Assembly: GCA_044450645.1 (NCBI GenBank)
Contig: JBIOJG010000018.1
Location: 30,825 to 94,824 of the forward strand
Source of the DNA: Candidatus Binatia bacterium
GTDB taxonomy: Bacteria; Desulfobacterota; Binatia; HRBIN30
Direction: 5' to 3'
DNA length: 64,000 nt
Under the pieces are notes generated by a model. That model did no database searches. It saw only the letters and a list, made by a program, of their open reading frames with translations, and was not told the DNA's origin. The translations under genes and the position numbers were made by a program. Positions 3,253 through 18,671 of the stretch are shown here, one piece after another. The stretch's first letter is position 1; each line of letters starts with the position of its first letter.

Positions 3253-3996
3253 TCACAGATCCTTCGGCGCACACCCCCAGGCGCGCAGAATCGCCACCTC
3301 GTCCGCCGCGCTCATCGCCTTCTTGAACTTCGCGCCGGAGCGGCCTTTCACGCGACGCTCGCACTCAGCCCACGTCGCATGACGCATCGGTTTGCCGTCG
3401 ATGACGCTCAGATAGGAATACGCCGCGGCCTTGCTCTTGCCGCTCGACGATGCGCCGGGGGCGCGCTTGGGCACGCTGGTGTCGTCGGGGACGTCAAAGA
3501 TCGGCAGCGGGTAACGGAGGAGCGGACCGTCGTAGAGCTTGGGGTGACGTTTGCGTGCGAAGGCATTGGCGATCTCGTCGACACGCTCGTTGCCCGGAAT
3601 GCCGGTGTGGCCGCGGACATAGTGCCACTCAATGCCGCCCTTGCCGCGCGCGCTGACCAGGCTTGCCAACGCCTCCCACAGCTCGCGGTTGAGCACGTCC
3701 TTGCCCTCGGCCGTCTTCCAGCCGCGTTTGCGCCACGCCCAGATCCACTCGCGGATGCCTTTGATGACGTACGTCGAGTCGGTGTAGATCGCCAGCGTGT
3801 CGTGCGTGCGCTGCAGGCGGCGCAAGGCTTCGATGGGCGCCGTCAGCTCCATCTGATTATTCGTCGTATGCGCGGCGCCGCCGCCGAGCTCAGTGACATG
3901 GCCGTCGGGCGTGGCGATGATCACGCCCCAACCGCCGGGCCCGGGATTGCCCTTGGCCGCGCCGTCGGTGAACACCACGATCGGTTGCTCGCTCAT
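3253..3996 (-). CDS. rnhA: Ribonuclease HI with C-terminal viroplasmin/Cauli_VI hybrid-binding domain
   Basis: 'FTDGAAKGNPGPGGWG', 'TTNNQMEL', 'TDSTYV', 'VRGHTGIPGNERVD'; tail 'TWAECERRVKGRSGAKFKK'. Confidence 0.9.
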   Translation of the reverse strand: MSEQPIVVFTDGAAKGNPGPGGWGVIIATPDGHVTELGGGAAHTTNNQMELTAPIEALRRLQRTHDTLAIYTDSTYVIKGIREWIWAWRKRGWKTAEGKDVLNRELWEALASLVSARGKGGIEWHYVRGHTGIPGNERVDEIANAFARKRHPKLYDGPLLRYPLPIFDVPDDTSVPKRAPGASSSGKSKAAAYSYLSVIDGKPMRHATWAECERRVKGRSGAKFKKAMSAADEVAILRAWGCAPKDL

Positions 3997-4107
3997 GCCT
4001 CGTTCCTCATCGCGTCGGTGTGCCCGGTTTGCGCGGCGTGTGCAACTCGCCACCGCAGCGCGATCACGACTTTCGATGGAATGGTCGCACAGGAACGCCA
4101 CGCTGCA

Positions 4108-4481: not shown

Positions 4482-4685
4482 ACGATGTTCATACGATAAT
4501 CGCCACGATGACCTCAAGGGAGAGAGGATCAGCGGCGGCTGAGCGTCTCAGACACGCGAACGCCCCTTGACGTGACCGAGTGCGTACGCGCAATTGTCCC
4601 TTTTGCACATTCGTGGGACAACTTGATCGCTGCCTGTGATCGTGCGAAAACCCTGGCGGTGGGAGGCTGGGCTGGGAGTGGTTGA

Positions 4686-6026
4686 ATGACGGTTACTTCG
4701 CGCAATCCAATCGGCATGCGACAAGCGAGCGCTACCTCCACGGCCAGCGGTCGGGGTAAAATCGCGAGTCCCAAAAGATCTCGAGGTCAAGGTGCCGAAT
4801 GGTACCCCTACTATGCGGGGTTCTCCCCGGCGTTCGTTCGCGCCGTGCTAGCCGAGCTGGGGATGCCGGTCGGCGCAACAATAGCGGACCCATGGAATGG
4901 TTCTGGGACCACCACGGCATGCGCCTCCGAGTTGAAGTATGAAGCGATTGGCGTCGACATCAATCCTGCCATGGCCCTCATCGCCGCCGGTCGAATGGCA
5001 TTGAAGGATGACCTTCGAGCTTGCTGCACCACGATGGAAGACCTGCAGCCGGTCGCGGAGATCCCGAGAGGCGATCCCCTTCTGTTCTGGTTTGAAGGTG
5101 ATGCCGCGAACGTGATTCGCGGAATCGAACACCACATCAGCTCGCACCTCACGGATGGTCTGCTGCCGAGTAGATCGACACTCGTGTCGCCATCCGAGGG
5201 TCTGCACTTCACCGCCCTCTTCTTGACCGTGCGTGCGCTGATGGCGACGTTTGCTGGTTCGAATCCAACTTGGATTCGTCGACCCGACGCCAATGAATCG
5301 AAGATTCACGCAACGTTTGAGCACATCGTCTGTATGTATGCGCGCAACTCGACTCTCCTCCGAGAGCACCTTGCTACGAACAGGGAAAGCGCTGCGGTTC
5401 GACTGATGATAGGGGACTCGCGGTCGCTGGCGCTCGATGATGCCACTGTCGATGCGGTAATCACGTCTCCCCCGTATTGCACCCGATTGGACTATCCAAT
5501 TGCTACTCGAGCTGAGCTTGCCGTGCTGGGGATAGGTCCGACGTGCGTGGAGCACAGACAGTTGCGGCAGGCGTCGCTAGGCACGACCACCGTTGCCAAA
5601 CACACTCCTGGAATTTTGCATGAGTGGGGGCAAAAGTGCGCTACCCTTCTTGAGGGCATTCGTTCACACGAATCCAAGGCATCGCAAAGCTACTATTTCA
5701 AAACCCACTGTCAATATTTCGACTCGCTCAATAGGTCGCTGCGGGAATTGAACCGGGTTCTACGGCCTGGGGGTAAGTGCGTGGTCGTTGTACAGGATTC
5801 GCGCTACAAAGAGCTGCACACAGATCTTCCTGGGATCACCAGCGAGATGGGTGAGCATCTAGGCTGGAAGCTCGAACACCGCATGAATTTCCCTGTTCGG
5901 AGCACTCTCGCTGACTCGAATCCAGTATCAAAGCGCTACAGGTCAAGGAGCGACGCGACGGAGAGCGTCCTTTGGTTTGCCAGAGGGACATCCAGCAAAG
6001 AGTGGACTACGGCTAGACGCATATGA
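4686..6026 (+). CDS. Site-specific amino DNA methyltransferase (N4-C/N6-A; motif I before motif IV)
   Basis: 'WYPYYAGFS', motif I 'DPWNGSGTT', 'GVDINP', motif IV 'VITSPPY', 'LNRVLRPGG'; start uncertain (4686 or 4716). Confidence 0.88.
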   Translation: MTVTSRNPIGMRQASATSTASGRGKIASPKRSRGQGAEWYPYYAGFSPAFVRAVLAELGMPVGATIADPWNGSGTTTACASELKYEAIGVDINPAMALIAAGRMALKDDLRACCTTMEDLQPVAEIPRGDPLLFWFEGDAANVIRGIEHHISSHLTDGLLPSRSTLVSPSEGLHFTALFLTVRALMATFAGSNPTWIRRPDANESKIHATFEHIVCMYARNSTLLREHLATNRESAAVRLMIGDSRSLALDDATVDAVITSPPYCTRLDYPIATRAELAVLGIGPTCVEHRQLRQASLGTTTVAKHTPGILHEWGQKCATLLEGIRSHESKASQSYYFKTHCQYFDSLNRSLRELNRVLRPGGKCVVVVQDSRYKELHTDLPGITSEMGEHLGWKLEHRMNFPVRSTLADSNPVSKRYRSRSDATESVLWFARGTSSKEWTTARRI

Positions 6027-7069
6027 AGGTACTACCTACCAATATGACTCTGCAGGATTTTCTCGCAGCTCTCCAGCGCGGAGAGATTACGGTCAATCGT
6101 GATTATCAACGCAGCGACCAGGTGTGGCCCGATGCGGCACGTTCGTATCTCGTTGAAACAGTGCTCAAGGACTTCCCAATCCCGAAGCTCTCGCTTCGTC
6201 AGGTCACCGATCCTAAGACGGGGGACTCGTATAAGGAGATTGTTGACGGGCAGCAGCGGTGCGCGGCGCTGCGCGCATTCAGCAAGAATGAATTTTCGCT
6301 CTCAAATGCGGTTGAGGATGGATCACTGCGGGGCTTTGCCTACGACGATCTGTCTCGAGAGCAGCAGGCTACTTTCAAGGCTTATCAGATGAGCCTCGAT
6401 ATTTTCCTGGGGGCGGAACCAGGAGAAATTCGCGAAGTGTTCAGGCGAATGAACTCCTACACAGTGCCGCTAAACCCAGAAGAGCAGCGCCACGCTCAGT
6501 TTCAGGGCAAGTTCAAATGGTTCCTGCATCGGCTCGGTCTTGGCCTAAACGAAGCTTGGGTAACGATGGTTGTTTTTTCGCAGAAGCAAATCGTGCGAAT
6601 GGCGGATACGAAGCTCTTGGCAGAAGTCTGTCATGCCATCTGTCGGGGAATCTCGACCACTAACAAGAGGTCCCTCGATCAACTCTACGCTGCGCTGGAT
6701 GAGGAGTTTGCCGCAGAGCAGGATATCGAGGCACGGCTGACCGATGCGGTTGAGGTTCTTCTTGGATGGCCCGACTTGCACGGCAGCGTACTAATGAAGC
6801 CATTTCAGGTATACGGGCTTTTGTTGGCGATCACCCACGTCACTAGGCCAGTTCCGACACTTGCCGACGAGTTCCCCATACAGAAGGGACAAAAGATTGA
6901 TTACGGAACGGCGATGCTCCGACTAACGCGGCTGGCGGAGGTGATCGAGCAAGACCAGAGCGCAGGGAAGTATGCACGCTTCGTCAAGGCTTCCGCGGAA
7001 AAGACCAACGTGAAAGCCGAAAGGGAGACACGGTTTAAGTACTTCTGTCAGGCGCTTATCGGGGCTTAA
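6023..7069 (+). CDS. Stand-alone DUF262 (ParB-like, GmrS-type) protein
   Basis: 'NRDYQRSDQVW', 'IVDGQQR', 'VFRRMNS..VPLNPEE'; ATGA overlap with MTase; no DUF1524/HNH tail. Confidence 0.88.
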   Translation: MKVLPTNMTLQDFLAALQRGEITVNRDYQRSDQVWPDAARSYLVETVLKDFPIPKLSLRQVTDPKTGDSYKEIVDGQQRCAALRAFSKNEFSLSNAVEDGSLRGFAYDDLSREQQATFKAYQMSLDIFLGAEPGEIREVFRRMNSYTVPLNPEEQRHAQFQGKFKWFLHRLGLGLNEAWVTMVVFSQKQIVRMADTKLLAEVCHAICRGISTTNKRSLDQLYAALDEEFAAEQDIEARLTDAVEVLLGWPDLHGSVLMKPFQVYGLLLAITHVTRPVPTLADEFPIQKGQKIDYGTAMLRLTRLAEVIEQDQSAGKYARFVKASAEKTNVKAERETRFKYFCQALIGA

Positions 7070-7076
7070 AAACCCG

Positions 7077-7745
7077 ATGAGACCGACGCAAGATCTCCGA
7101 CGATTGGCGGCGCCAGCATGCCGTCGAGTTTCCTTATTGTACGGACTCGTCCAACGATGCTCTTCCCCGCCAACGCAGGAAGAGGAGCGCATTATCGCGC
7201 TTGCAACAATTGATGCCCAATGGATTTGGGCAGGTTTCAGCCGCCATTTTTTCATATCGTGCTGCATGGGTACACGGACCGTACTGGGCAATCGAGCATG
7301 TTCAGTTCTGCGCCCATTCGTGAATCCGAACGACGTCATAAATTTTGCGGCCGCGGCATTGGCTGGCCCGAGCAAGTCACCAAGCAAGGCCGCGAAACCC
7401 AGAAAGATAAAGACATTGAAACCGATCGAGGAACCTCCTTGGCATGTTCCTCAAATTCTCCTGACGTTGAGTGGCAGGGCCAATCTTTCCAATCAGACGC
7501 AAATCTCAACCGCCCTTGCCGTTCCTGGAAGATCACTTGATGATCTTCGAACAGCTCGCAACTTCTTTGCCCATAGAAGCTACGTCACCGCCGACAAGGT
7601 AAGGGCGATGGCAATCCGCATTGGTCTTCCCAAAGCGCCAAGAGCTGCCATTCTCTTGGCTGAGCGCCAGCCAGGAAAACCATACTCAATTCTGAGCGGA
7701 TGGCTTGCTGACATGCGCTCAATCACAAGGCTAATGTGTCAATGA
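7077..7745 (+). CDS. Putative HEPN-superfamily protein
   Basis: Helical protein with Rx4H motif 'LRTARNFFAH'; 7 bp after DUF262 gene. Confidence 0.6.
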   Translation: MRPTQDLRRLAAPACRRVSLLYGLVQRCSSPPTQEEERIIALATIDAQWIWAGFSRHFFISCCMGTRTVLGNRACSVLRPFVNPNDVINFAAAALAGPSKSPSKAAKPRKIKTLKPIEEPPWHVPQILLTLSGRANLSNQTQISTALAVPGRSLDDLRTARNFFAHRSYVTADKVRAMAIRIGLPKAPRAAILLAERQPGKPYSILSGWLADMRSITRLMCQ

Positions 7746-7790
7746 TCCCGAACCCAAATGTACAAGGACGAAGCTCGGTGAGAACTGCCC

Positions 7791-7846
7791 GACTTTTTGT
7801 GCAGTCCCCCGATTAATTGTGCAGGATCGCCTTTTTGTGCAAAGCC
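7791..7846. mobile_element. IS-end-like sequence truncating vsr
   Basis: Three TTGTGCA copies 18-20 bp apart ending TTTTTGTGCAAAGCC exactly where Vsr homology stops. Confidence 0.35.
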
Positions 7847-8057
7847 GCCAAAAGCAGCCATGCACAAAAATAGCCCACTTGGCTCGCCGGTTCACAATGT
7901 CGGGCGTTCCGGGCAGATCCTTCGCTCCGACCCTGAATCGGAGTCCACAAGCGTGCACGACGCGGCGAGCCCTGAGTTCGGCTGAGGTGTCTTCGTGTTT
8001 GACCGAAGACATCAAGCGCGACCGCTCTGGTGTGGTGATCAACCCCCTCGATCCCAA
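7847..8057 (-). pseudogene. vsr: Truncated very-short-patch-repair endonuclease
   Basis: 'RSRLMSSVKHEDTSAEL', 'GLRFR', 'DLPGTPDIV', 'AIFVHGCFW', then homology ends before the expected His. Confidence 0.8.
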
Positions 8058-8546: not shown

Positions 8547-8886
8547 CTCGCTGACCTCAATAGTTCTGGCGCCAACCTGGATGCTGCTCCGACCCCGAAA
8601 GCAGTTGAACGGGAAAGGATGCTGGCATGGTCTCGCTATCCCGCCGGCCCATCGCGGTGCGCCCCCGCGCTGACGCACTCGGGAGCGGTGTAATCGTGAG
8701 ATGCGTAATGAGCTGGCCAAAAGGGTCCTCGTCCACCAGCCGTACTTCTTCGACTCACCGCTGCTCCATTGACCCGCTTCACTACCACAGAAGCGCGGCC
8801 GGGAGCGATGCTTGCTCGCGGAACGGAACGATCCATCCAGCCCCGACAAGTTCCTCGGGCGATAGACCGAGTCGAGCGAACGACCG

Positions 8887-10029
8887 TCACGGTGAGGGCG
8901 TGGGCAACACGAACGGCGCCGGGGTGGGTGTCAACGCCGCAATCTGGCGGAAGTAGTCCTGCACGGTCGTCCACGTCTGCCCGCCGTCGGTGGTGCGGAA
9001 GATGTTGTTCTCGTCAGACGCTGCCCAACCTTGAAGATCATCGACAAACTGCCCATGGCCAATCGACTCAATATTGTCGTAATTGTGCCGCGTCCACGTA
9101 GTTCCATCGTACGTGATGAGGAATGATGTTGTCGGGAATTTGGGCGTGAAAAATATGCCGTCGGGCCTAACTACTTGGCGCTGGCCTATCGGAGGGATGT
9201 GATTGTCCGTACCGAAGATGTAGGCACGAGTGGCTGACACTACCTGGAGATTGACCAGCATATCGCGGTGGTCAATGTGCCCTCCGTCAATGGGAACGCT
9301 TTGCTGTTGCCAGGATGTCCCGCCGTCCGACGAGGCCTGAACCGTGTTAATCACGTCCACGGTCATGCACATCGCTTGGCCAGCGCACTGGAGATCCGAG
9401 GTGTCCCGCGGGGCGCCAGCCATCGCTTGCCAGGTAATCCCGCCATCCCTAGTGCGAATCACGCCGATGTCTGTCTGTGCAATTCCATCTGTTCCAGAGA
9501 ACATCAGCACCCGCTTGACGTCACCAAGCTGCTCCGGGATCAGGTAGCCTGACCAAGTTTGCCCACCGTCTGTAGTCACGGCAACGTGGTTGCCGCCCGC
9601 AGCCCAGCCCCGATTGATATCGAGGAAGAAAACCTGGGAGACAGTTCCGACACGCACTTTGTCGTGTCGCTGAAACTGGGTGCTCATCGTCTGCAGCGTG
9701 TGAAAGCCATCCACAGTCCGGTACAAAGCGAAATCGGCAGTTCTCACGTAGAGCCAGGCAGCATTGTCATCGAGAAAGAAGGACTGTTCGATCCGCCCGC
9801 CCGGAGTGGCGCGCAGTTCCCAATGTTGCCCTGCATCGGCAGTATGCAACACCTCATGAGTTGTTAGGACGTATCCGGCAGTTGGGCTAGCGAAGAACAA
9901 ACCCCAGTACTGCCTTTCAAGTGAGCCACTTAAGGGTGCTAGATCAATGGTTTGTGCCCATGACATTTGGCGTGGGCCAATTGACATCATATAGATGACC
10001 ATCGACAGTCCAATACGTCTCATTGACAT
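8887..10029 (-). CDS. Secreted Ycf48/BNR (Asp-box) beta-propeller protein
   Basis: Repeats 'TADAGQHW', 'TTDGGQTW', 'TRDGGITW', 'SSDGGTSW', 'TTDGGQTW'; N-terminal signal; overlaps stop of giant gene. Confidence 0.85.
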   Translation of the reverse strand: MSMRRIGLSMVIYMMSIGPRQMSWAQTIDLAPLSGSLERQYWGLFFASPTAGYVLTTHEVLHTADAGQHWELRATPGGRIEQSFFLDDNAAWLYVRTADFALYRTVDGFHTLQTMSTQFQRHDKVRVGTVSQVFFLDINRGWAAGGNHVAVTTDGGQTWSGYLIPEQLGDVKRVLMFSGTDGIAQTDIGVIRTRDGGITWQAMAGAPRDTSDLQCAGQAMCMTVDVINTVQASSDGGTSWQQQSVPIDGGHIDHRDMLVNLQVVSATRAYIFGTDNHIPPIGQRQVVRPDGIFFTPKFPTTSFLITYDGTTWTRHNYDNIESIGHGQFVDDLQGWAASDENNIFRTTDGGQTWTTVQDYFRQIAALTPTPAPFVLPTPSP

Positions 10030-13000
10030 GTAAATGTGCCTCCTCCCGATGAGAAGCCGCTATCAAAGCTGTTCACCCAGGGCCCGCCGCTCGGGGATTC
10101 CCACCGGTCAAACAGGAGCTGCTGGCTTATTTCTGAAGCCACCTCCTTTGCCTTCGTCGTCTGTCGGAGGTGATCATAGCCTCCGATGACCGAACGCGCG
10201 GCGTCGTCCGTGCCATACAGAGCACTCCCTTCTGGCACCACGCCATCTGACGTGGCTGGGCCGAAGCCAGGGCAATATCCAGCGACGCCGCTTATCGCAT
10301 TAAACAGCTGCAATACGACCTCGGTGAGGGCCCCGGTTGCCTCGGTGGCGATCGCATGAACGAGAAGCGGCCCCGGGACAGCCGTGTCGAGCGCTTGCGT
10401 GGCTCCGCTCCCAATCGATAGATCCATTATTGCCGTTCCGACGTCGTTGGCTGCGGTGGCGGCCTTCCCGCCGCTTAGAGATTTCATGATCAGCTGCACG
10501 GCAACCGCGGCCAGATACTCGGTCCTTGCAGGAGGGTATACCAGGTCCAACGGTGACGGTTGCGGCGGTATTCCAAAATTCAGACGATCGAGTTGCATCC
10601 CTCGCCGTAACAACCAGTTGGCTGCCGGGCTGCCGCCGAAGGGGGAACCGATAGCCACAAGGGCGCGTACGTCGCCCTCACCGAAATTATCGGGTCTTTG
10701 ATACTGCTCCCCAGAACTCCGTCTTGTATCGAGGAACGGGAAGTTTTGCCCGTTCGTTGTCCCGGCCGCATCAGTGACGAATCGTGAGCTGCTCGGCCGC
10801 AGCGATTCGCTGGCAAGCCAGCGAATCGCCACACCGCCCATGCTGTGCGCCACCACGTCGACTTTTGTCGCAGCAATACCATCCTTGCGTAGCCTATCAA
10901 GTACGTCTAGCACTCCCTGGGCCTCCACTGGCGCTGAGGGGAGCCTTCGTCGCACCGCGCGCGAGATTCGGTCGTACCCGGAAGTATTGAGATCGGCGTA
11001 GTCCACAATGACCCGCTCAAACTGAAAGGGTTGGAAATATGCGAGGAAATATGGCGTCCAGGTCTCAGGCCCGCTATCGCCAAACAGTCCGTGAACGAAT
11101 ACTACCGGAGGTCGCACCAAGGATACGTTCGACGAAAACCCCTCCTCTCCGACGGGCTGCACTGTGAAACGGAGCGGTAGTTGACGGCCGGCTTCTTGAG
11201 GTTTGGCCACCCATGGAAATGATGTGGGCGGTGTGAATACGGCAACGAACACATGCGTGCCATCAGCGGCTTTTATGAAGTCGGTAACCAGACTCAGTGC
11301 CGGGCTATCCACAGCAGGGCTGTTCAACCCCGTGAGCGAGAGCGACCCAAATGGGTAGTCCACATCGGAGATAAAGTGACTGCCGACTGGACTTGGCTCC
11401 TTCGCTTGGTTGACCTCGGCTTTGAAGACCATCTTGGCATGTGGGTCTTTCTGCGGAACCTTGAGGCGCAAGACGAGCCGACTCGATCCATCAGCGAGCG
11501 CGCCGGTCATATCGTCTCGCGCCACGATTTTCTCGGCGTACGCCTTCCGGAGATCGGCCGCGGAACCGCCATTCTTGAAGCTTGCGATCTCCGCCGCAAA
11601 CTCCCGCGCGTCGATCACCTGCAGCTCTGCCAACTTCGCCGGGTTGCGCTCCAGCGTGCTGATCTTGCCGCTCGCCTTAAGCAGCTGCATCGTGGCGCCC
11701 GCCTGGCGCTCGGAAATCGGTGTGTCCGCCGGATCGATCGGCAGAACGTCCTGTCCGCTCGTCGCTTGCCGCAACGCCTCCGGCGTCAATCCCAGCGGCA
11801 TGCCGTCGTAGAAGAGCGCGTCTTGCTGCGATGCGGCCTCACGGGTGCTCATCGACACCATGGTGAAGGCCGTCGGCCCTGAGGGCGGCGTGGCGTCGAC
11901 GATTGTGCCGGCGTCCGGTGTCATGCCGCGCGCCATGTGCACCGAGGCGCTCACGATGCTTTGCGGGTCGACGCCGATGACATCGACCCGTCCGAACGTT
12001 TCCTTCGGCAACTGATCAAACGTCTCCTCGCCTCGCAGTACTTGCTCCAGGTCTTCGGCCTCCGGCTCAGTGAAGAGAAGCTTTTCGTTCTCGCCACTTC
12101 CCCCTGTCGACGAACCGGCCTGCTGCCCGTGTTGGCCGGCGATAAAGCGTATATCCACCGCCGTCAACGCCGCGCGATCCTCAACAGGCGCCATCGGCAC
12201 GCCGGTCGGCGGGCTCCACCGGTACAGCACCACAATGTCGCGGTCGGCCTGGCTCGGTGCCAGCGCTTCAACCCAGATCGTGGTCGGCGGTCGTTGGCCC
12301 GTGTCCAAGTCGAAGGTGGCTGGACTCGCCACGGCATCGCCCTTTTCAGGACTCAGCCACAGCTTGGCATGATCGCTGCCGCTCTCGATCGCGATCGTCA
12401 CCGTGCCCTGTGACATCGGCGTGGAGACGTCGATGCGCCGTAGATCATGCTCACCCTTGACCAACCCGGTCTTGTTGAGATCGAGAATCGGTGCGCCGGC
12501 CGCATCCACTGCGCCATCGTCGTTGTCATCATTCACCAGCACGAAGGTGCCGTCGCTTGCCTTCAATGCATCCGGCACGATCTCGATGTTGTTGGTGTCG
12601 TACAACGTCAGCCCGGCCACTGTGGGCGCCACCTGGACCAGGTATACACCACCTGTCCCTGCCGCTACCGCGACAATCTGCCGGCCCGCCATATCCACAT
12701 ATCGAGCCACACGCGCGGTGCGATTGCCGTCAAGATCAACGGTGCCCAGGACGCGATCGTCGATGCCGTCACCGTCATCATCCACACTCCCACCGGCAAC
12801 GGCCAAGTCGATCACCGTCAGCCCCGCCGTACCGTCCGCCACATACAGGAGTTGAGTGCTCGGGTCACCCACCGAGCCACGCGAAATCCGCCCGGGCGTG
12901 CGGAGCACCCCAGCTCCGTTCGGCAGAAGCAATGGATCGAACCCACTAACCGACACGGGAACAACGCATACCCCGATCCCCTCACACATGACCACCGCCA

Positions 13001-16000
13001 GATCACGCCGCTCCATCGTGCTGGTCCGCTGCCCTTGTGCGTCGACGCCGTCGATCCGCGTCGGCCAGTCCGCAAGCCCAGTCACAGCCAGTAGTCGACC
13101 ACCTCCCGGCAGGAGGTAGGTTCCCGTCACATTCGTCAGATTCGGATAGGCCAACACCAGCGTATTGGCGGCGCCATCTTGCCGCACCGCCAAAATGTTG
13201 TTCTTCAGAATGGTCACGGCGCGGTAGAGGCCGGTGAGCGTGCCATCGACCTGCGGCCCAACCAAATCGCCCGCGTCCATCTGCTGCACCACCACTGCCT
13301 GGAGCCCTATGTTCGGGGCGTTGGCGATGTAGGCTATCTGCGTGTCTACCGCCGCCACACCCTCGGGAATGCCACGGTCGTTGGGAATGAACTTCAGAAA
13401 GTCGGGCGGCGGCCCCTGCGTCGGATCGCGGAGATTGAACAGGTCCCAACTCTCCGCCGATTGGTTGATCAAACGGCTCGCCACTTCGGTGATGGTGGGG
13501 AAGTGTTCCAAGTCGAGCAGCCGCCACACGCCGAACCGGTCGGCCCCGCCCGGACCGTCGATGCTCATGATGAACGGGCCGGCGAAGGTTGCGGCGTGCT
13601 GGCCGGTGGTCGTCACCGGCGGTCCCGGGACGAACACCAGCGCTCGATCGACACCAGCCGTCGCCCGGGAGGCGATGACCGGAGGGGACGAGGACAGACC
13701 TGTCCTGAGCTCGGCCGAAGGGTCGCTGACGTCGTAGACATTGATCCCACCGGCAAAGTCTGCCCGCAGTCCATCGCCCTCGGCGACAGCGAGCAGTCGC
13801 TTTCCCGGTGGAAGATGGACCGTCACTGGATCCACGACGACCACATCGCGCGCATCGACGCCCGTGATGTGCCCAATGACGCGCGGCTGGAACACCGTGA
13901 AGCCGCCCGTAACCGCGCCAGGCAGCTGATTGCCGTCTCTGTCCAAGATGCCCTGGACCGAGAGCCGATATTGCGCGCCGAAGTGCAGCCGTGTGTCGGG
14001 CACGAACGTGACAACGCGGCCATCGGCGGACAACCGGAGGGTGCCTTTCACGGAACGGCCGTGCCCATCGACCAACTGCACCGTGGCCGGGTTGAGCGAG
14101 TTGGGATCGAGCGGCTTGCTGAAGGTCACGCCGAGCCAGGCGGAAGGATCCACTTTCTGCGTTCCCTCGGGTACCGACATACCCTCGACATGCGGCGGCT
14201 CCGTGGTATCCGTGAGTCGTCGCGGCAACTCCACCACCTGCCCCTGTCCCGGCATGTTCACCGTTTGCGCCGTAATCGGCCGGTCGTCGAAGGTCTGTAG
14301 CTTGACGTCCACCGCCCGGTTACACGGCAGCGGCACCGCGAAGCGCACAGGAGTGCTCACCTGCACGGGGAACGGCAGCAGGGCGCCGAGTGCGCCGCCT
14401 GGGACGTAGCCGTTGTTGAACTGGTCGCCGATGCTGATCCAACCGGTGGCGTAGGCGAGACAGTCCTTCGTTCGATGCACGCCGAACGTCCCGCCGAGGG
14501 TGAGACCAGGAAACACTCCGGGGTCTGTAACGACGAGACACTTGCTCGGGTCGGCTGTGCAGCTGGCGGCGTCGAACGATGCCGTATCCACCATCGTCTG
14601 CTCATCGATCCCGCGGAAGTTGATGACCTGGGTCGCGATATACTGATCGCTGGCGGCCGCATCCGCCGGCGCCGGGACCGACACGTCCAGATTTCGCTGC
14701 GCCGTCCCCACGAAGTCGAGCCGCACCGCACCGACCAGTTCGATCAGGCTTTGATCAAGGCTCGTAAGGACCGGATAATCCGCCACGTTCAACCCCACCC
14801 CGTTGGCCGTGATCGGCGTGATCTGCACGATGGTGGGCTGAGTGAAGGCGCCATCAGGGATCAAGGCTTGGTAGCGTGGATCGTACGGGTACGTCACCAC
14901 GCCTCCCGTGGTATCGATCACAGTGGCACCGGTGCGTTCGTCACGCATATTGCCGGTGTCGAGCGTGACCGTGTTGTGCAGGACATCTTGGACTTGCACC
15001 TGCACTTTGTCGCCGACGGCCGCGTCGATCACCGTGCAGAAACTGCCGGGCGCACTCGTGTCGCAGCGGCCGGGGAACAAGGCGTCGCAGACATCGCTGC
15101 CGCTCACTCCGCTGGGGTCCGTCGCGCTGGCAGTGTAGGTCACCTGGCCGGTCGCGTTCTGCACCACGACGGCGGTCCCCGGCGCTGCCAAGCTCGCCCC
15201 GCCGCACACGAAGACGCGGCCCTGGTCGTCGGGCAGCGACAGGTGCAGCGTGTTCGGCGGCAGCGCATCGGCCTTGAAGATCGCGGCTGTCGTAAAATCA
15301 CTGACGAAGGCGCCCTCACCCTGACCCTCTTCCAGAGGGCGAGGGGAAAGTGGGTTGCCGTAGAGGTCGGTAACGTCGCTGGTAAGCACGACACGGTAGA
15401 CCGTGTTCGGCGCCAGCGGCGCTGCCGGAGTGAGCAGCAATTGTTTACCGTCGGCGCTGAGCGACGAACGCCCTGAAACGCCGTGAGTCGTGCTCGTGAG
15501 TCGTGAATCGATCTGCAGAAGCTGCACGGAAGCCTCTGTGATCGACGCGGGCGCAATCGGCTCTGAAAACGTGATCGTCATCACGGCGCCGGCAGGCACC
15601 TGGCTGGCGTGGTTGGCCGGATCGATCTGGACGACCTTCGGCAACGTCGGCCGCAGCGCGATATCCGCGAGAACAACTTGAGCGGGCACCGGCGTGACCG
15701 CCGCCGTCCCACTCAGGTCACGCACCTGATCGGAGCACGACACCGTTGAGGTGACACCCGCAGGGACCGGCAACAGGTAGCGGCCGGCGGAATCGGTCAT
15801 GCTGACCACGCCGATCGTGTCGGCTTCGACGACAACGCCTGCGCGCACGCCGCTCCCATCTGTTACCGTGCCCGTTATGATCGCCGCCCCGGACGGCAGC
15901 GCGAACACGGCATAGGTGCCGCTGCCTCCAAGCCCGGCCAGGCAGAGGCTCGCGGCTGCCGAGCACGCATCCAGGTATATGAGACCATTCTGGCTGTGAC

Positions 16001-18671
16001 CGAACCCCGCGAGCACCAACGCCCATCGCTGATCGACCGTGGCCAGCTGCGCAATCACACATTCCAGACCATCCGGCACCGGCAACGCCAGGCTCAACCC
16101 GTAGAAGGCCCTGGCACTCAACACCCCTCCATCAACTTCGAGCGCGAACGCACCGAGCAAATCCGATCGCGTGCCGGCATCCCCTGGCAGTGCCACAGCA
16201 GCAACCGGCCGCAAGCCGACCACCGTCCGCTGTTCCGTCGCACCCGGCGGCACGATCAATCGGAGGCCGCCGTCGCCTCGGATCTCGCCACCAGTTGGCC
16301 CGACCACTTCCGGATGGCCGGCCCCTTGCGGCAGCGTCAGATCGATCGCCACCCTGCCCTGCCGCAGTTCACCCATCCCGAAGGTATCGCTCGGCGTCAG
16401 GTTGAAGTACGCTCCAAGCGATGTGGAAACGTGGGAGGGTGAAAGCGTGGGAGTCAGTTGATAGCCAATGATGTCCTGGGTCGACACGGCGCCGGTGATG
16501 TGCCGGCCGTCCCGCCGTTCGTATTCTTCGCGTAGCTGCACTTCGAGCAGCGTGCCACTCGGCAGTGGCTGTAACAGGCTAACCATTTCCACAAGCACCT
16601 GAGCGCCGGCGCCACTACCAGCCACGATCGCCGCCGGCGCGACGGTGACCAAGGCCGCTCCGGGCGTTGGCAGCACCGGCTCGACCCCGCGGAGCGGCTC
16701 GCCACGCGCAGGCTGTGGCGGTTGTACGGGCAGGCTGTCCGCCACCAGCAGCACCAGCTGCACGCTTGGGGCCATCCCGTCCACTTCGACTTCCAATTGA
16801 TCACCCTTCAGTACAGCTGGCGGCCCGCCCTGCCAACCCCAGGCGGCGTCGTCCCATACCGCCGTTATCACTGGTAGTGATGCTGTCGAGCCCAGGAGCG
16901 CCAACGGGACTCGTACCGCACTTCCGCCTGGCCAGGGTGTCGTCGCCGCCAGCGACAAGTCGATCCCCAACAGCACGCTCCATCCCAGTGGCACTGGGGC
17001 GATCAACCCTTGCGGGCTGAGCACGGTGAGCCGGACGTCCGTTTCGGTGGAAAGGGCACCGGAGGGAATGCTCAACTCGACGGTGCCATTCACGCCCGGC
17101 GCGGCGTACCGCGTCCGCACGATACCGCCCGCATCGTTCACCGCAACAGGTGTCGCCAGTGCCGTGAGGCGCGCATCCTGGAGCCGCAGGGCGGCGATCT
17201 GGTCGGCACCGGCCCGGCGCCGGGCACTCGAATGCCCGCTCTTCTCGAGTTCCAGCAGCACCTCGCCGGCCACTGAGGGCAACCAGAAATAGCGGCCGCG
17301 GGCGTCGGTCGTCGCCACCACCGCCTGGGCGACTACGACCTCCACGCCGGCCAGTGGCTGTGCGGTGCCATCATCCATCACTTGGCCGACCAACACACCA
17401 GGCGGGGTAGAAGGCGTACTGGTTGGCATCAACGTCGGCGTCGAGGACAGGACACACGTTGCGGTTGCCGATGCGGTTGGAATTGGCGTCACCGTACCGG
17501 TTGGCGACGGCAGCAGGGTCGGCGTGCAGCTGGGCACCTCGGTTGCAGTCGCGGCCGGCGTCGGCGGCACCGTCGGGCTCGGCAGCGTGGCGGTAGCCGT
17601 TACCGTAGGGGTCACGGGCTTCGCGGTGCCTGGGGCGACCACGACCCGCCGTGGCCGCCGTTGAAAGCGCTGCGTATGGACGACCCGTAACGTCGCCGTG
17701 TCGATCACAAATACCGCAAGCGACCGCGGGCTCGTAACGATCACCCGCGTGCCGTCGGGCGTGACAGCCAGGTCGTACGGTCGCCCCGGCAGCTCAACAA
17801 TGCCCTGCACGGTTAAGCCGGCGCCTTCCACCACCGTCAGTTTGCTCTTCGTTGGGTCCGTGACATAAATGCGGGCGCCGTCTTCACTGACCGCCAAGGC
17901 ACGCGGATTCGTACCCAGGTGGACCGTGGCACGCTGGTTCCCGTCGGCAATGCTGATGGCAGTCAGCAGGCCCTCCCGCCGGCCGAGCGCATAGAGCGTC
18001 GCGCCGTCGCGGCTCACGGCCAGCGCCACCGGCACGTGACCAATGCTCAGCGTCCGTTCGATGCCGCCGGTCATCGCGTCAATGGCTGCGACACGGCCCG
18101 GATGCCAATCGTATCCGGCAAAGACGATGCGCCCGCCGGGGTCGAGCGCCAAGGCACGCACCCGCCCCGGCATCTTGGTCGCCCAGTCGACCGTGCTCGC
18201 AGCGCCCACGGTAACGGCAACCACCGCACTCGGGTCGGATCGGGACACGTACGCACGGCGCGGTCCGACACCGGCCACCACATGATCTGGCTCGTGCATC
18301 CGCAATTGGTGCGTCTCTCCCGGCGCAACCAGGCTGACGCTTTCGATTCTCGAATCCTCCGCCGCCACCAGCCATTCACCGCTGGTCACAGCCAGGTCGC
18401 GTGGCACGCGGCCCATCGGCACCGCCCCGACAGGCTTGCCGCTGTCGCCGTCGAGCAGCACCACTTCGTCGCTGCCGCTGAAAGACAGCGCGGCCATCCG
18501 TGACAGGTCGATGGTTTCCGCCAGGACCTCACGTCGACCCGCGCCGCCGCCGCACAGCGCCACCAAGAACGCCATCGTCCACACGCGCAGCCGAGCCTGC
18601 CCACGTGCTCCGCTCTCGGCCCGCAGCGATCCTGATCGTCGCTTCGTCCCCGATAGGAATCGTGCCCCCAT
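10020..18671 (-). CDS. Giant (2883 aa) secreted multidomain protein: YVTN propeller, PT linker, carboxypeptidase-regulatory-like, Big_5 Ig-like x2, beta-propeller, C-terminal PGAP1/lipase-type alpha/beta hydrolase
   Basis: YVTN-like 'PRALAVSEDGARIYVT'; Big_5-like 'ITFSEPIAPAS' and 'VTFSKPLDPNS'; hydrolase 'PVVFVHGLFG', 'VVAHSMGG', 'IGSPFGGS', 'SDGVVP', 'YDHL'; start may lie ~100 bp downstream. Confidence 0.85.
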   Translation of the reverse strand: MGARFLSGTKRRSGSLRAESGARGQARLRVWTMAFLVALCGGGAGRREVLAETIDLSRMAALSFSGSDEVVLLDGDSGKPVGAVPMGRVPRDLAVTSGEWLVAAEDSRIESVSLVAPGETHQLRMHEPDHVVAGVGPRRAYVSRSDPSAVVAVTVGAASTVDWATKMPGRVRALALDPGGRIVFAGYDWHPGRVAAIDAMTGGIERTLSIGHVPVALAVSRDGATLYALGRREGLLTAISIADGNQRATVHLGTNPRALAVSEDGARIYVTDPTKSKLTVVEGAGLTVQGIVELPGRPYDLAVTPDGTRVIVTSPRSLAVFVIDTATLRVVHTQRFQRRPRRVVVAPGTAKPVTPTVTATATLPSPTVPPTPAATATEVPSCTPTLLPSPTGTVTPIPTASATATCVLSSTPTLMPTSTPSTPPGVLVGQVMDDGTAQPLAGVEVVVAQAVVATTDARGRYFWLPSVAGEVLLELEKSGHSSARRRAGADQIAALRLQDARLTALATPVAVNDAGGIVRTRYAAPGVNGTVELSIPSGALSTETDVRLTVLSPQGLIAPVPLGWSVLLGIDLSLAATTPWPGGSAVRVPLALLGSTASLPVITAVWDDAAWGWQGGPPAVLKGDQLEVEVDGMAPSVQLVLLVADSLPVQPPQPARGEPLRGVEPVLPTPGAALVTVAPAAIVAGSGAGAQVLVEMVSLLQPLPSGTLLEVQLREEYERRDGRHITGAVSTQDIIGYQLTPTLSPSHVSTSLGAYFNLTPSDTFGMGELRQGRVAIDLTLPQGAGHPEVVGPTGGEIRGDGGLRLIVPPGATEQRTVVGLRPVAAVALPGDAGTRSDLLGAFALEVDGGVLSARAFYGLSLALPVPDGLECVIAQLATVDQRWALVLAGFGHSQNGLIYLDACSAAASLCLAGLGGSGTYAVFALPSGAAIITGTVTDGSGVRAGVVVEADTIGVVSMTDSAGRYLLPVPAGVTSTVSCSDQVRDLSGTAAVTPVPAQVVLADIALRPTLPKVVQIDPANHASQVPAGAVMTITFSEPIAPASITEASVQLLQIDSRLTSTTHGVSGRSSLSADGKQLLLTPAAPLAPNTVYRVVLTSDVTDLYGNPLSPRPLEEGQGEGAFVSDFTTAAIFKADALPPNTLHLSLPDDQGRVFVCGGASLAAPGTAVVVQNATGQVTYTASATDPSGVSGSDVCDALFPGRCDTSAPGSFCTVIDAAVGDKVQVQVQDVLHNTVTLDTGNMRDERTGATVIDTTGGVVTYPYDPRYQALIPDGAFTQPTIVQITPITANGVGLNVADYPVLTSLDQSLIELVGAVRLDFVGTAQRNLDVSVPAPADAAASDQYIATQVINFRGIDEQTMVDTASFDAASCTADPSKCLVVTDPGVFPGLTLGGTFGVHRTKDCLAYATGWISIGDQFNNGYVPGGALGALLPFPVQVSTPVRFAVPLPCNRAVDVKLQTFDDRPITAQTVNMPGQGQVVELPRRLTDTTEPPHVEGMSVPEGTQKVDPSAWLGVTFSKPLDPNSLNPATVQLVDGHGRSVKGTLRLSADGRVVTFVPDTRLHFGAQYRLSVQGILDRDGNQLPGAVTGGFTVFQPRVIGHITGVDARDVVVVDPVTVHLPPGKRLLAVAEGDGLRADFAGGINVYDVSDPSAELRTGLSSSPPVIASRATAGVDRALVFVPGPPVTTTGQHAATFAGPFIMSIDGPGGADRFGVWRLLDLEHFPTITEVASRLINQSAESWDLFNLRDPTQGPPPDFLKFIPNDRGIPEGVAAVDTQIAYIANAPNIGLQAVVVQQMDAGDLVGPQVDGTLTGLYRAVTILKNNILAVRQDGAANTLVLAYPNLTNVTGTYLLPGGGRLLAVTGLADWPTRIDGVDAQGQRTSTMERRDLAVVMCEGIGVCVVPVSVSGFDPLLLPNGAGVLRTPGRISRGSVGDPSTQLLYVADGTAGLTVIDLAVAGGSVDDDGDGIDDRVLGTVDLDGNRTARVARYVDMAGRQIVAVAAGTGGVYLVQVAPTVAGLTLYDTNNIEIVPDALKASDGTFVLVNDDNDDGAVDAAGAPILDLNKTGLVKGEHDLRRIDVSTPMSQGTVTIAIESGSDHAKLWLSPEKGDAVASPATFDLDTGQRPPTTIWVEALAPSQADRDIVVLYRWSPPTGVPMAPVEDRAALTAVDIRFIAGQHGQQAGSSTGGSGENEKLLFTEPEAEDLEQVLRGEETFDQLPKETFGRVDVIGVDPQSIVSASVHMARGMTPDAGTIVDATPPSGPTAFTMVSMSTREAASQQDALFYDGMPLGLTPEALRQATSGQDVLPIDPADTPISERQAGATMQLLKASGKISTLERNPAKLAELQVIDAREFAAEIASFKNGGSAADLRKAYAEKIVARDDMTGALADGSSRLVLRLKVPQKDPHAKMVFKAEVNQAKEPSPVGSHFISDVDYPFGSLSLTGLNSPAVDSPALSLVTDFIKAADGTHVFVAVFTPPTSFPWVAKPQEAGRQLPLRFTVQPVGEEGFSSNVSLVRPPVVFVHGLFGDSGPETWTPYFLAYFQPFQFERVIVDYADLNTSGYDRISRAVRRRLPSAPVEAQGVLDVLDRLRKDGIAATKVDVVAHSMGGVAIRWLASESLRPSSSRFVTDAAGTTNGQNFPFLDTRRSSGEQYQRPDNFGEGDVRALVAIGSPFGGSPAANWLLRRGMQLDRLNFGIPPQPSPLDLVYPPARTEYLAAVAVQLIMKSLSGGKAATAANDVGTAIMDLSIGSGATQALDTAVPGPLLVHAIATEATGALTEVVLQLFNAISGVAGYCPGFGPATSDGVVPEGSALYGTDDAARSVIGGYDHLRQTTKAKEVASEISQQLLFDRWESPSGGPWVNSFDSGFSSGGGTFTCQ
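13699..13722. repeat. REP-like element in frame within giant gene
   Basis: CCTGTCCTGAGCTCGGCCGAAGGG, related to the CCCTTCGAC..CTCAGG repeats at 46639 and 57143; encodes PSAELRTG. Confidence 0.55.
15313..15346. repeat. REP-like CCCTCACCC..CCCTCT..GAGGG element in frame within giant gene
   Basis: CCCTCACCCTGACCCTCTTCCAGAGGGCGAGGGG encodes PLSPRPLEEGQGEG; related to 46739-46761. Confidence 0.6.

Follow-up and report, generated by a model that had tools for sequence, protein, structure and literature searches.

Two described arrangements are closest to the locus reported here. Table 1 of Anantharaman et al. 2013 (PMC3710099) lists an operon made up of a DNA methylase, a ParB (DUF262) protein and a HEPN protein of the RiboL-PSP/MAE_28990 type, and the same paper proposes that HEPN RNases linked to restriction-modification (R-M) systems are released once the R-M system has been neutralised, with PrrC cited as the analogy for such HEPN proteins. 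The second, PD-T4-2, is given as DUF262 plus a HEPN protein of family PF18735 in a review table (PMC10952713) and is reported to protect E. coli against T4 (PMC9519451; Vassallo et al. 2022). Here, a three-gene locus of this kind is described from a 64,000-nucleotide stretch of the genome of a Candidatus Binatia bacterium (GCA_044450645.1, contig JBIOJG010000018.1, positions 30,825 to 94,824), which as a whole is called the window below. We judge it rather probable that the locus is a defence-type module, with a DUF262 sensor and a HEPN RNase as its core and a permuted methylase coupled to them, and that it forms a divergent branch of the operons predicted in 2013; very probably it descends from those operons and works like them. 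It is a conserved, unannotated, divergent variant of a known arrangement and not a categorically new kind of system.

The locus comprises the following genes:

4686-6026, + strand: permuted N6/N4-type DNA methyltransferase ("class A"), 446 residues

6023-7069, + strand: stand-alone ParB/Srx-fold DUF262 protein (ORF2), 348 residues

7077-7745, + strand: HEPN-type protein (ORF3), 222 residues

A first-pass annotation of this DNA had described the three open reading frames (ORFs) as tightly coupled, and its coordinates, strands and junctions were all verified: the methylase and DUF262 genes share an ATGA stop/start overlap (6023-6026, read from the sequence), and 7 bases (7070-7076) separate the DUF262 gene from the HEPN gene. 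One gene caller used an alternative start of ORF2, 7 codons downstream (P0153, 341 residues); the start at 6023 is favoured because homologues cover 100% of the 348-residue form. The protein on record for ORF3 (P0001) has 141 residues and looks too short, because homologues align from residue 1 of the 222-residue form, and the start in the source annotation was probably mis-called.

The same annotation had presented the operon as a candidate undescribed one, a claim that has to be given up: the gene arrangement was already predicted in Table 1 of PMC3710099, the same methylase family is found in the canonical trios, and PD-T4-2 is a tested two-gene relative. As in the MAE_28990/RiboL-PSP operons, the gene order is methylase, DUF262 and then a HEPN protein of about 215 residues with an RNxxAH motif, and the methylase belongs to the same family. 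Unlike in those operons, the HEPN protein is not recognised by PF18735 or PF18737, being linked to them only via a bridging family, and the DUF262 protein represents a separate subfamily. Literature searches, with supplementary tables outside their scope, returned no experimental or mechanistic study of the methylase-ParB-HEPN operon, of the PD-T4-2 mechanism or of the ORF3 family.

ORF3 is a HEPN-type protein with, according to its structural model, a helical-bundle fold. The motif RNFFAH (residues 161-166), which lies within a conserved RNFFAHR, is the HEPN Rx4H signature; W51, E119, W122, R161 and H166 are invariant in 50 aligned members of the family, and N162 is present in at least 90% of them. 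The best structural matches of the AlphaFold model (predicted local distance difference test score, pLDDT, 93.7) are the HEPN toxins 7ae2 and 8xdj (HEPN-MNT), followed by more HEPN-titled entries at ranks 10, 15, 24 and 45, with nothing at E ≤ 0.001 in this Foldseek search of the PDB. The Rx4H motif and HEPN identity assigned in the first pass are thus borne out, and ORF3 would be the RNase effector of the module. Searches of PADLOC, NCBIfam and Pfam (the last up to E ≤ 10) gave no match to ORF3, nor did tblastn against plasmids, and the family profile gave only chance lysozyme matches among PDB sequences. The family nevertheless comprises 541 cluster representatives (50% identity) at E ≤ 0.001 and 280 at E ≤ 1e-10. 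Neither this HEPN family nor its DUF262 partner is recognised as such by Pfam, NCBIfam or PADLOC, and because of that such loci are missed in defence-system censuses.

The only Pfam family matched by ORF2 is PF03235 (E 2.1e-16, residues 18-160). In PADLOC it matches five models: its best match in this defence library is NsnA of Menshen (PDLC03877, E 6.7e-34, residues 5-223), PD-T4-2_A is weaker (PDLC04027, E 9.6e-13, residues 12-198), and the others are REase_II (PDLC03418, E 1e-7), DpdB and LmuA. The motifs YQR (28-30), DGQQR (75-79) and FRRMN (140-144) are present, and their residues are invariant in 31 sequences except R141 and M143 (thus FxRxN). The AlphaFold2 model (pLDDT 92.0) contains helices only from residue 133 to residue 348, and in Foldseek it comes closest to BrxU (7p9k, E 7.4e-4), ParB CTPases and SspE. 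These features agree with the earlier reading of ORF2 as a DUF262 protein that keeps YQR and DGQQR and has no nuclease domain. By analogy with GmrSD, BrxU, SspE and GrwAB, where the DUF262 domain is described as a nucleoside triphosphate (NTP)-dependent modification sensor controlling an effector, ORF2 may be a DNA- and NTP-dependent sensor or switch.

Several described systems that share this domain were considered and rejected. Menshen (NsnABC) resembles the locus in that ORF2 is similar to NsnA (ParB-DUF262 and the helical region that follows), and Menshen operons are often found beside methylases (PMC12065111), but neither the NsnB ABC ATPase (AAA_15 + DUF3696) nor the NsnC inPIN effector adjoins ORF2, the ORFs around the trio belonging to different families or to none recognised, and unlike in Menshen a HEPN gene directly follows the DUF262 gene. 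The GmrSD/BrxU/SspE type shares the N-terminal DUF262 domain with its QR, DGQQR and FxxxN motifs, and BrxU is the best structural match of ORF2; however, ORF2 lacks the DUF1524 His-Me (HNH-like) domain, and the effector is a separate HEPN protein. No Dazbog model is among the PADLOC matches of ORF2. The V. cholerae WonAB/GrwAB paper does not describe the DUF262-HEPN pair.

The methylase matches PF01555 in two stretches (E 1.1e-15) and the Type II methylase models of PADLOC, best among them MTase_II (E 8.4e-30). Motif I, DPWNGSGTT (S-adenosylmethionine), is close to the N-terminus at residues 68-76, and the catalytic SPPY follows about 190 residues later, at 261-264; in 17 homologues from related loci, the motif residues are invariant except P69 (at least 90%) and S73. 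Judged by its sequence, this is an intact, permuted N6/N4-type methylase, whose target base (N6-adenine or N4-cytosine) cannot be distinguished in this way. The first-pass annotation had pointed to the same SPPY and DPWNGSG motifs and had recognised no restriction enzyme in the trio; scans with Pfam, PADLOC and NCBIfam likewise detected no HNH, DUF1524 or PD-(D/E)xK family in the three proteins. Family scans recognised no restriction enzyme cognate to the methylase in the trio or its flanks, and a classical Type II R-M system was rejected for that reason.

The ORF3 family is rare in the phylum of the window (2 of 401 sampled genomes). In the other genome of the phylum, where the contig ends upstream of the pair, as well as in a metagenome-assembled genome (MAG) of Acidobacteria, a DUF262 gene is located directly upstream of the ORF3 homologue. 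With the DUF262 protein as the query, 80 metagenome loci were fetched; an ORF3-family gene was immediately downstream in 74 of these, and the other 6 had at most 142 nucleotides (nt) of downstream DNA. After removal of 7 duplicates and addition of the MAG, 74 non-redundant loci remained, 6 of them not assessable, and the HEPN gene directly follows the DUF262 gene in 68 of the 68 assessable ones. Thus, DUF262 and HEPN form an obligate, fixed two-gene cassette, and with 541 representatives of the ORF3 family and the gene pair present in every assessable related locus, the recurrence is far beyond chance.

To characterise the neighbours of this cassette, flanking ORFs were scanned with Pfam and with the methylase of the window. 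A PF01555 methylase was present within 2.8 kb of the cassette in 21 of the 22 loci that were fully flanked (at least 1400 nt on both sides): 11 of the 22 carry class A directly adjacent to the cassette, 4 carry a beta-class PF01555 methylase together with an XhoI-family endonuclease, and 6 carry another PF01555 methylase, in some cases beside an unknown gene of a size typical of restriction enzymes. Across all 74 loci, class A was found in 29, the XhoI type in 12, another PF01555 methylase in 10 and none in 23, which are mostly short contigs; in all 51 methylase-positive loci, the methylases within 2.8 kb are of the PF01555 type. Unlike the trio of the window and its flanks, the 12 XhoI-type loci carry a restriction enzyme with a different methylase. 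Class A is directly upstream of the cassette on the same strand in 15 of its 29 loci, 14 of them with gaps of -58 to +95 nt; the remaining one, L048, had been mislabelled by automatic sorting on account of an over-long ORF call and was assigned by reading. No conserved fourth gene was found across the cassette loci.

A gene for a class II (B12-dependent) ribonucleotide reductase directly adjoins the class-A methylase gene of the trio in four metagenome loci (L040, L048, L050 and L052), suggesting that one lineage has an insertion site that was used repeatedly. In the Acidobacteria MAG, where the methylase, XhoI enzyme and DUF262 protein are intact, the ORF3 homologue encoded downstream of them (L003:6001-6646) is split into two 95-residue ORFs, probably by a frameshift.

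The association was also examined from the side of the methylase, in 19 loci with class-A methylases from IMG/VR, some near-identical pairs being kept; 3 of these end at the methylase, leaving 16 with informative downstream DNA. A DUF262 gene immediately follows the methylase in 14 of the 16. In 11, the order is methylase, DUF262 (PF03235) and a HEPN protein with matches of about 1e-30 to PF18735 as well as PF18737 (confirmed with Pfam in the 4 of these RiboL-PSP/MAE_28990-type loci that were scanned); 2 carry the DUF262 and HEPN families of the window, 1 is cut inside the DUF262 gene, and 2 have neither. The methylase in the 11 RiboL-PSP/MAE_28990-type loci belongs to the family of the window (E 1e-85 to 1e-159 with the class-A hidden Markov model, HMM), and the DUF262 proteins are of a separate subfamily, these canonical partners reaching no better than E 1e-9 to 1e-20 with the HMM of the window subfamily. 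Among PF18735/PF18737 HEPN genes sampled in the phylum, a DUF262 gene is upstream in 10 of 14 loci. The class-A methylase family is therefore nearly always located beside ParB-HEPN cassettes, and the earlier expectation that the genes of the trio co-occur in other genomes holds from both sides.

Two further contexts of the class-A family were encountered. On a phage-like contig with an adjacent terminase gpA gene (L119:3493-6314), a DndB-family protein (PF14072, 1.2e-23) is encoded directly upstream of the class-A methylase, with no DUF262 and HEPN pair; DndB, which carries a fused HEPN domain (PMC3632139), is another ParB-superfamily partner for this methylase family. On a viral contig (L127:4105-5391), the class-A methylase is found alone near phage tail genes, and such methylase-only phages could be protecting themselves against systems of this type.

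Taken as a divergent branch of the 2013 operons, the locus would operate as follows. The DUF262 protein would bind DNA and a nucleotide and read a feature that separates invading from resident DNA, whereupon it would switch on its HEPN partner; the HEPN protein would cut RNA, so that translation stops, resulting in abortive infection or growth arrest; and the methylase would mark the DNA of the host so that the sensor stays silent on it. The RNase activity, the sensor-effector coupling, the anti-phage function and the role of methylation are what we infer. The scheme put forward in the first-pass annotation, a methylation-marked system with a HEPN RNase as its effector, is essentially the proposal of PMC3710099 on R-M-linked HEPN RNases.

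Several observations weigh against this interpretation. As far as the HEPN protein is concerned, neither PF18735 nor PF18737 matches ORF3 at E ≤ 10 or any of 50 members of its family at E ≤ 1, and PF18735, PF18737 and PD-T4-2_B HMMs found nothing in the genome from which the window derives. In a direct hhalign comparison of the ORF3 family with the RiboL-PSP and MAE_28990 alignments, the probabilities are 3.4% and 2.8%, with the RN..AH motifs in register. The likeness to PD-T4-2 is incomplete as well. That system, like the cassette of the window, consists of two genes, for a DUF262 and a HEPN protein, and ORF2 matches PD-T4-2_A; conversely, PD-T4-2_B has no match in ORF3, in the 50 family members, in the whole genome (E ≤ 1) or in 5 related prophage records. 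Identity with PD-T4-2 by HMM was rejected on account of this unmatched component.

The connection to the RiboL-PSP/MAE_28990 clade is provided by a bridging family represented in locus L151, where a methylase and a DUF262 protein are followed by a 213-residue protein that scores 29.0 bits on PF18735 (cut-off, 28.4); among the matches listed for this family, 9 of 120 relatives carry a precomputed PF18735 label. The ORF3 family aligns to the bridging family over 160 columns (hhalign probability 88.4%, E 2.8e-6), including the W..F, WH and RN..AH positions, and the bridging family in turn aligns to the RiboL-PSP/MAE_28990 proteins over its N-terminal 68 columns (65.6%). In the ESM Atlas, a RiboL-PSP-HEPN cluster is at rank 17 among the nearest named neighbours of ORF3 (score 0.95). 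On these sequence comparisons, ORF3 is a probable, not a proven, distant member of the RiboL-PSP/MAE_28990 HEPN clade.

The remaining points against the favoured reading concern the methylase. Locus L056 has no methylase in 5 kb on each side, the sole negative among the 22 fully flanked loci. The three methylase classes are dispersed over a tree built from 76 DUF262 proteins, requiring 18 changes compared with a mean of 19.7 in shuffles, 39 of 200 of which were as low; the nearest DUF262 relatives of the window adjoin an XhoI R-M system and a beta-class methylase. Between L038, which has a class-A methylase, and L029, which has an XhoI R-M system, DNA identity is 87.8% over 1798 bases, approximately from the start of DUF262 to the stop of HEPN, and nothing is shared outside this span. 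For L031 (class A) and L026 (beta class), the identity is 89.2% and again begins at the DUF262 start, the downstream edge being the end of a contig. Methylases are thus exchanged between cassettes that are about 88% identical in DNA, and since the homology sets in at the DUF262 start in both pairs and stops with the HEPN gene in L038/L029, the unit of inheritance is the two-gene cassette. These swaps make a sequence-specific methyl mark, read as in an R-M system, hard to reconcile with the data.

They also bear on the possibility that the ParB-fold protein is itself a DNase that cuts unmethylated DNA in the manner of a Type II R-M system, with the HEPN protein as an accessory subunit. ORF2 does match the REase_II model of PADLOC (PDLC03418, E 1e-7), the class-A trios contain no other nuclease, and the partner is termed "ParB nuclease" by Anantharaman et al. 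(PMC3710099). Nevertheless, the nuclease of the DUF262 systems studied so far is a separate DUF1524/HNH domain that ORF2 lacks, site specificity is incompatible with a change of methylase class beside an 88%-identical cassette, and cassettes devoid of any methylase exist. We regard a DNase role of ORF2 as very unlikely.

Cassettes of the last kind were found in a set of 17 IMG/VR loci whose DUF262 proteins are related to ORF2 more distantly (31-45% identity). An ORF3-family gene is downstream in 16 of the 17, the remaining contig ending at the DUF262 gene. The flanks of 14 loci were scanned, leaving out that contig and two that repeat contigs already counted, and 9 of the 14 have no methylase within 3.2 kb, which again speaks against a methylase-dependent module. 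The others are diverse: L133 has a PF01555 methylase, L138 adjoins Eco29kI and a C5 methylase, L143 adjoins an Eco57I-type methylase and a PstI/BsuBI enzyme, L144 adjoins NgoMIV and Vsr, and a Dam-type methylase is encoded 2.7 kb from the cassette of L137. Five distant cassettes (L139, L142, L145, L148 and L149) are inserted between modules of P2-like prophages (replication protein A, portal, terminase and tail/baseplate), positions that are described as hotspots or reservoirs of anti-phage systems (PMC9122126). The methylase association is very strong but neither universal nor specific.

In locus L150 (4971-7060), an ORF2-like DUF262 protein (E 6e-74) is followed by a 341-residue RelA/SpoT-domain protein (PF04607, 3.2e-12) with no HEPN protein, which suggests effector exchange behind the same DUF262 sensor and would suit a sensor whose toxic effectors are interchangeable.

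The cassettes without a methylase, several of them in P2-like prophages, raise the alternative that DUF262-HEPN is an autonomous, PD-T4-2-like sensor of modified or foreign phage DNA in the style of Type IV systems, and that methylases and R-M systems are merely co-mobilised first-line defences. This would fit the swapping of methylase partners between near-identical cassettes, the role of DUF262 as a modification sensor in GmrSD, BrxU, SspE and GrwAB, and PD-T4-2 itself, which is modelled in PADLOC as genes A and B only, with no methylase model, and is reported to be active both in E. coli K-12 and in the strain from which it comes (PMC9519451). A purely autonomous cassette is, however, hard to reconcile with methylase adjacency in 21 of 22 loci sampled through the cassette and in 14 of 16 sampled through the methylase, far above chance. 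Moreover, the methylases of the 51 positive loci are all of the PF01555 type and not a random mix, and no partner other than the cassette is recognisable for the class-A methylase, which is translationally coupled to it in the window and, in 15 of the 29 class-A loci, lies directly ahead of it on the same strand. We consider such autonomy unlikely. As for a methylation-marked step that distinguishes self from non-self, the data cut both ways.

One possible resolution is that the cassette is a portable, sequence-independent reader of generic adenine-N6 or cytosine-N4 methylation, with any mark of sufficient density holding DUF262 off. A dedicated class-A methylase, that of an adjacent R-M system or, in the hosts of P2-like prophages, a host-wide enzyme such as Dam could supply the mark, and unmethylated incoming or replicating phage DNA would then fire the HEPN RNase. 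Such a reader would explain the near-constancy of the methylase in the clade of the window, the swaps between near-identical cassettes and the absence of methylases in prophages, but we hold it to be decidedly unlikely. The conservation of a methylase neighbour whose type is freely exchanged nonetheless raises the question of whether a DUF262 sensor can use methylation without sequence specificity.

The exchange of partners is equally relevant to a guard model of the PrrC type, in which the HEPN RNase would be held inactive by the methylase or R-M proteins and freed when a phage anti-restriction factor disables them. The locus resembles PrrC/EcoprrI in that a HEPN-type RNase is genetically tied to DNA modification genes, and unlike it in that the modification partner is exchangeable. 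PrrC carries its own NTPase domain and is not known to have a DUF262 partner. Release of this kind was proposed for R-M-linked HEPN proteins (PMC3710099), and the cassette does adjoin several types of R-M system: XhoI (12 loci), PstI/BsuBI, Eco29kI and NgoMIV. A physical hold, though, would need contacts with unrelated and freely swapped methylases and R-M enzymes, and stand-alone cassettes would be unguarded, so that we give this model a very low probability. The divergent methylase-DUF262-HEPN module described above remains the favoured interpretation.

The trio is located in a low-GC island, as the first-pass annotation had noted from its AT-richness: windows between positions 5251 and 8000 have a GC content of 0.526-0.552, compared with 0.60-0.70 in the flanks. 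The toxin-antitoxin (TA) module, RNase H gene and vsr relic that it had placed around the trio were also found:

1746-2461: Phd/YefM + PIN pair

3253-4101: RNase H

7731-8057, - strand: vsr relic, whose N-terminal 64 residues match Vsr (PF03852, 1.5e-20)

A DUF6036-like protein is also among the neighbours of the trio. The presence of the Phd/PIN pair in the same island, together with the fact that HEPN proteins are common toxins and that the top structural matches of ORF3 are HEPN-MNT toxins, would be compatible with a TA-like addiction cassette that stabilises mobile islands or prophages and has no role in phage defence. This would leave unexplained both the near-constant methylase neighbour and the presence of an NTPase-type protein where a small antitoxin would be expected, and we deem it extremely unlikely.

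The Vsr fragment scores 65.9 bits, below the NCBIfam cut-off of 97.85, and the C-terminal half of vsr is unreadable in any frame, having been lost or frameshifted. The low-GC island includes the relic but no C5 methylase; an intact Vsr is encoded beside the NgoMIV enzyme in the related cassette locus L144. A scan for promoters and terminators found sites no more frequent than in shuffles, and a repeat search for the island ends gave nothing convincing beyond a 16-nt imperfect inverted pair (4576-4591 and 8667-8682, 88% complementary). This pair, which brackets the low-GC stretch containing the trio and the vsr relic, is short and may have arisen by chance. Farther downstream, a BNR/Ycf48-like protein (8887-10029) is followed by a single ORF of 2883 residues on the - strand (10020-18671).

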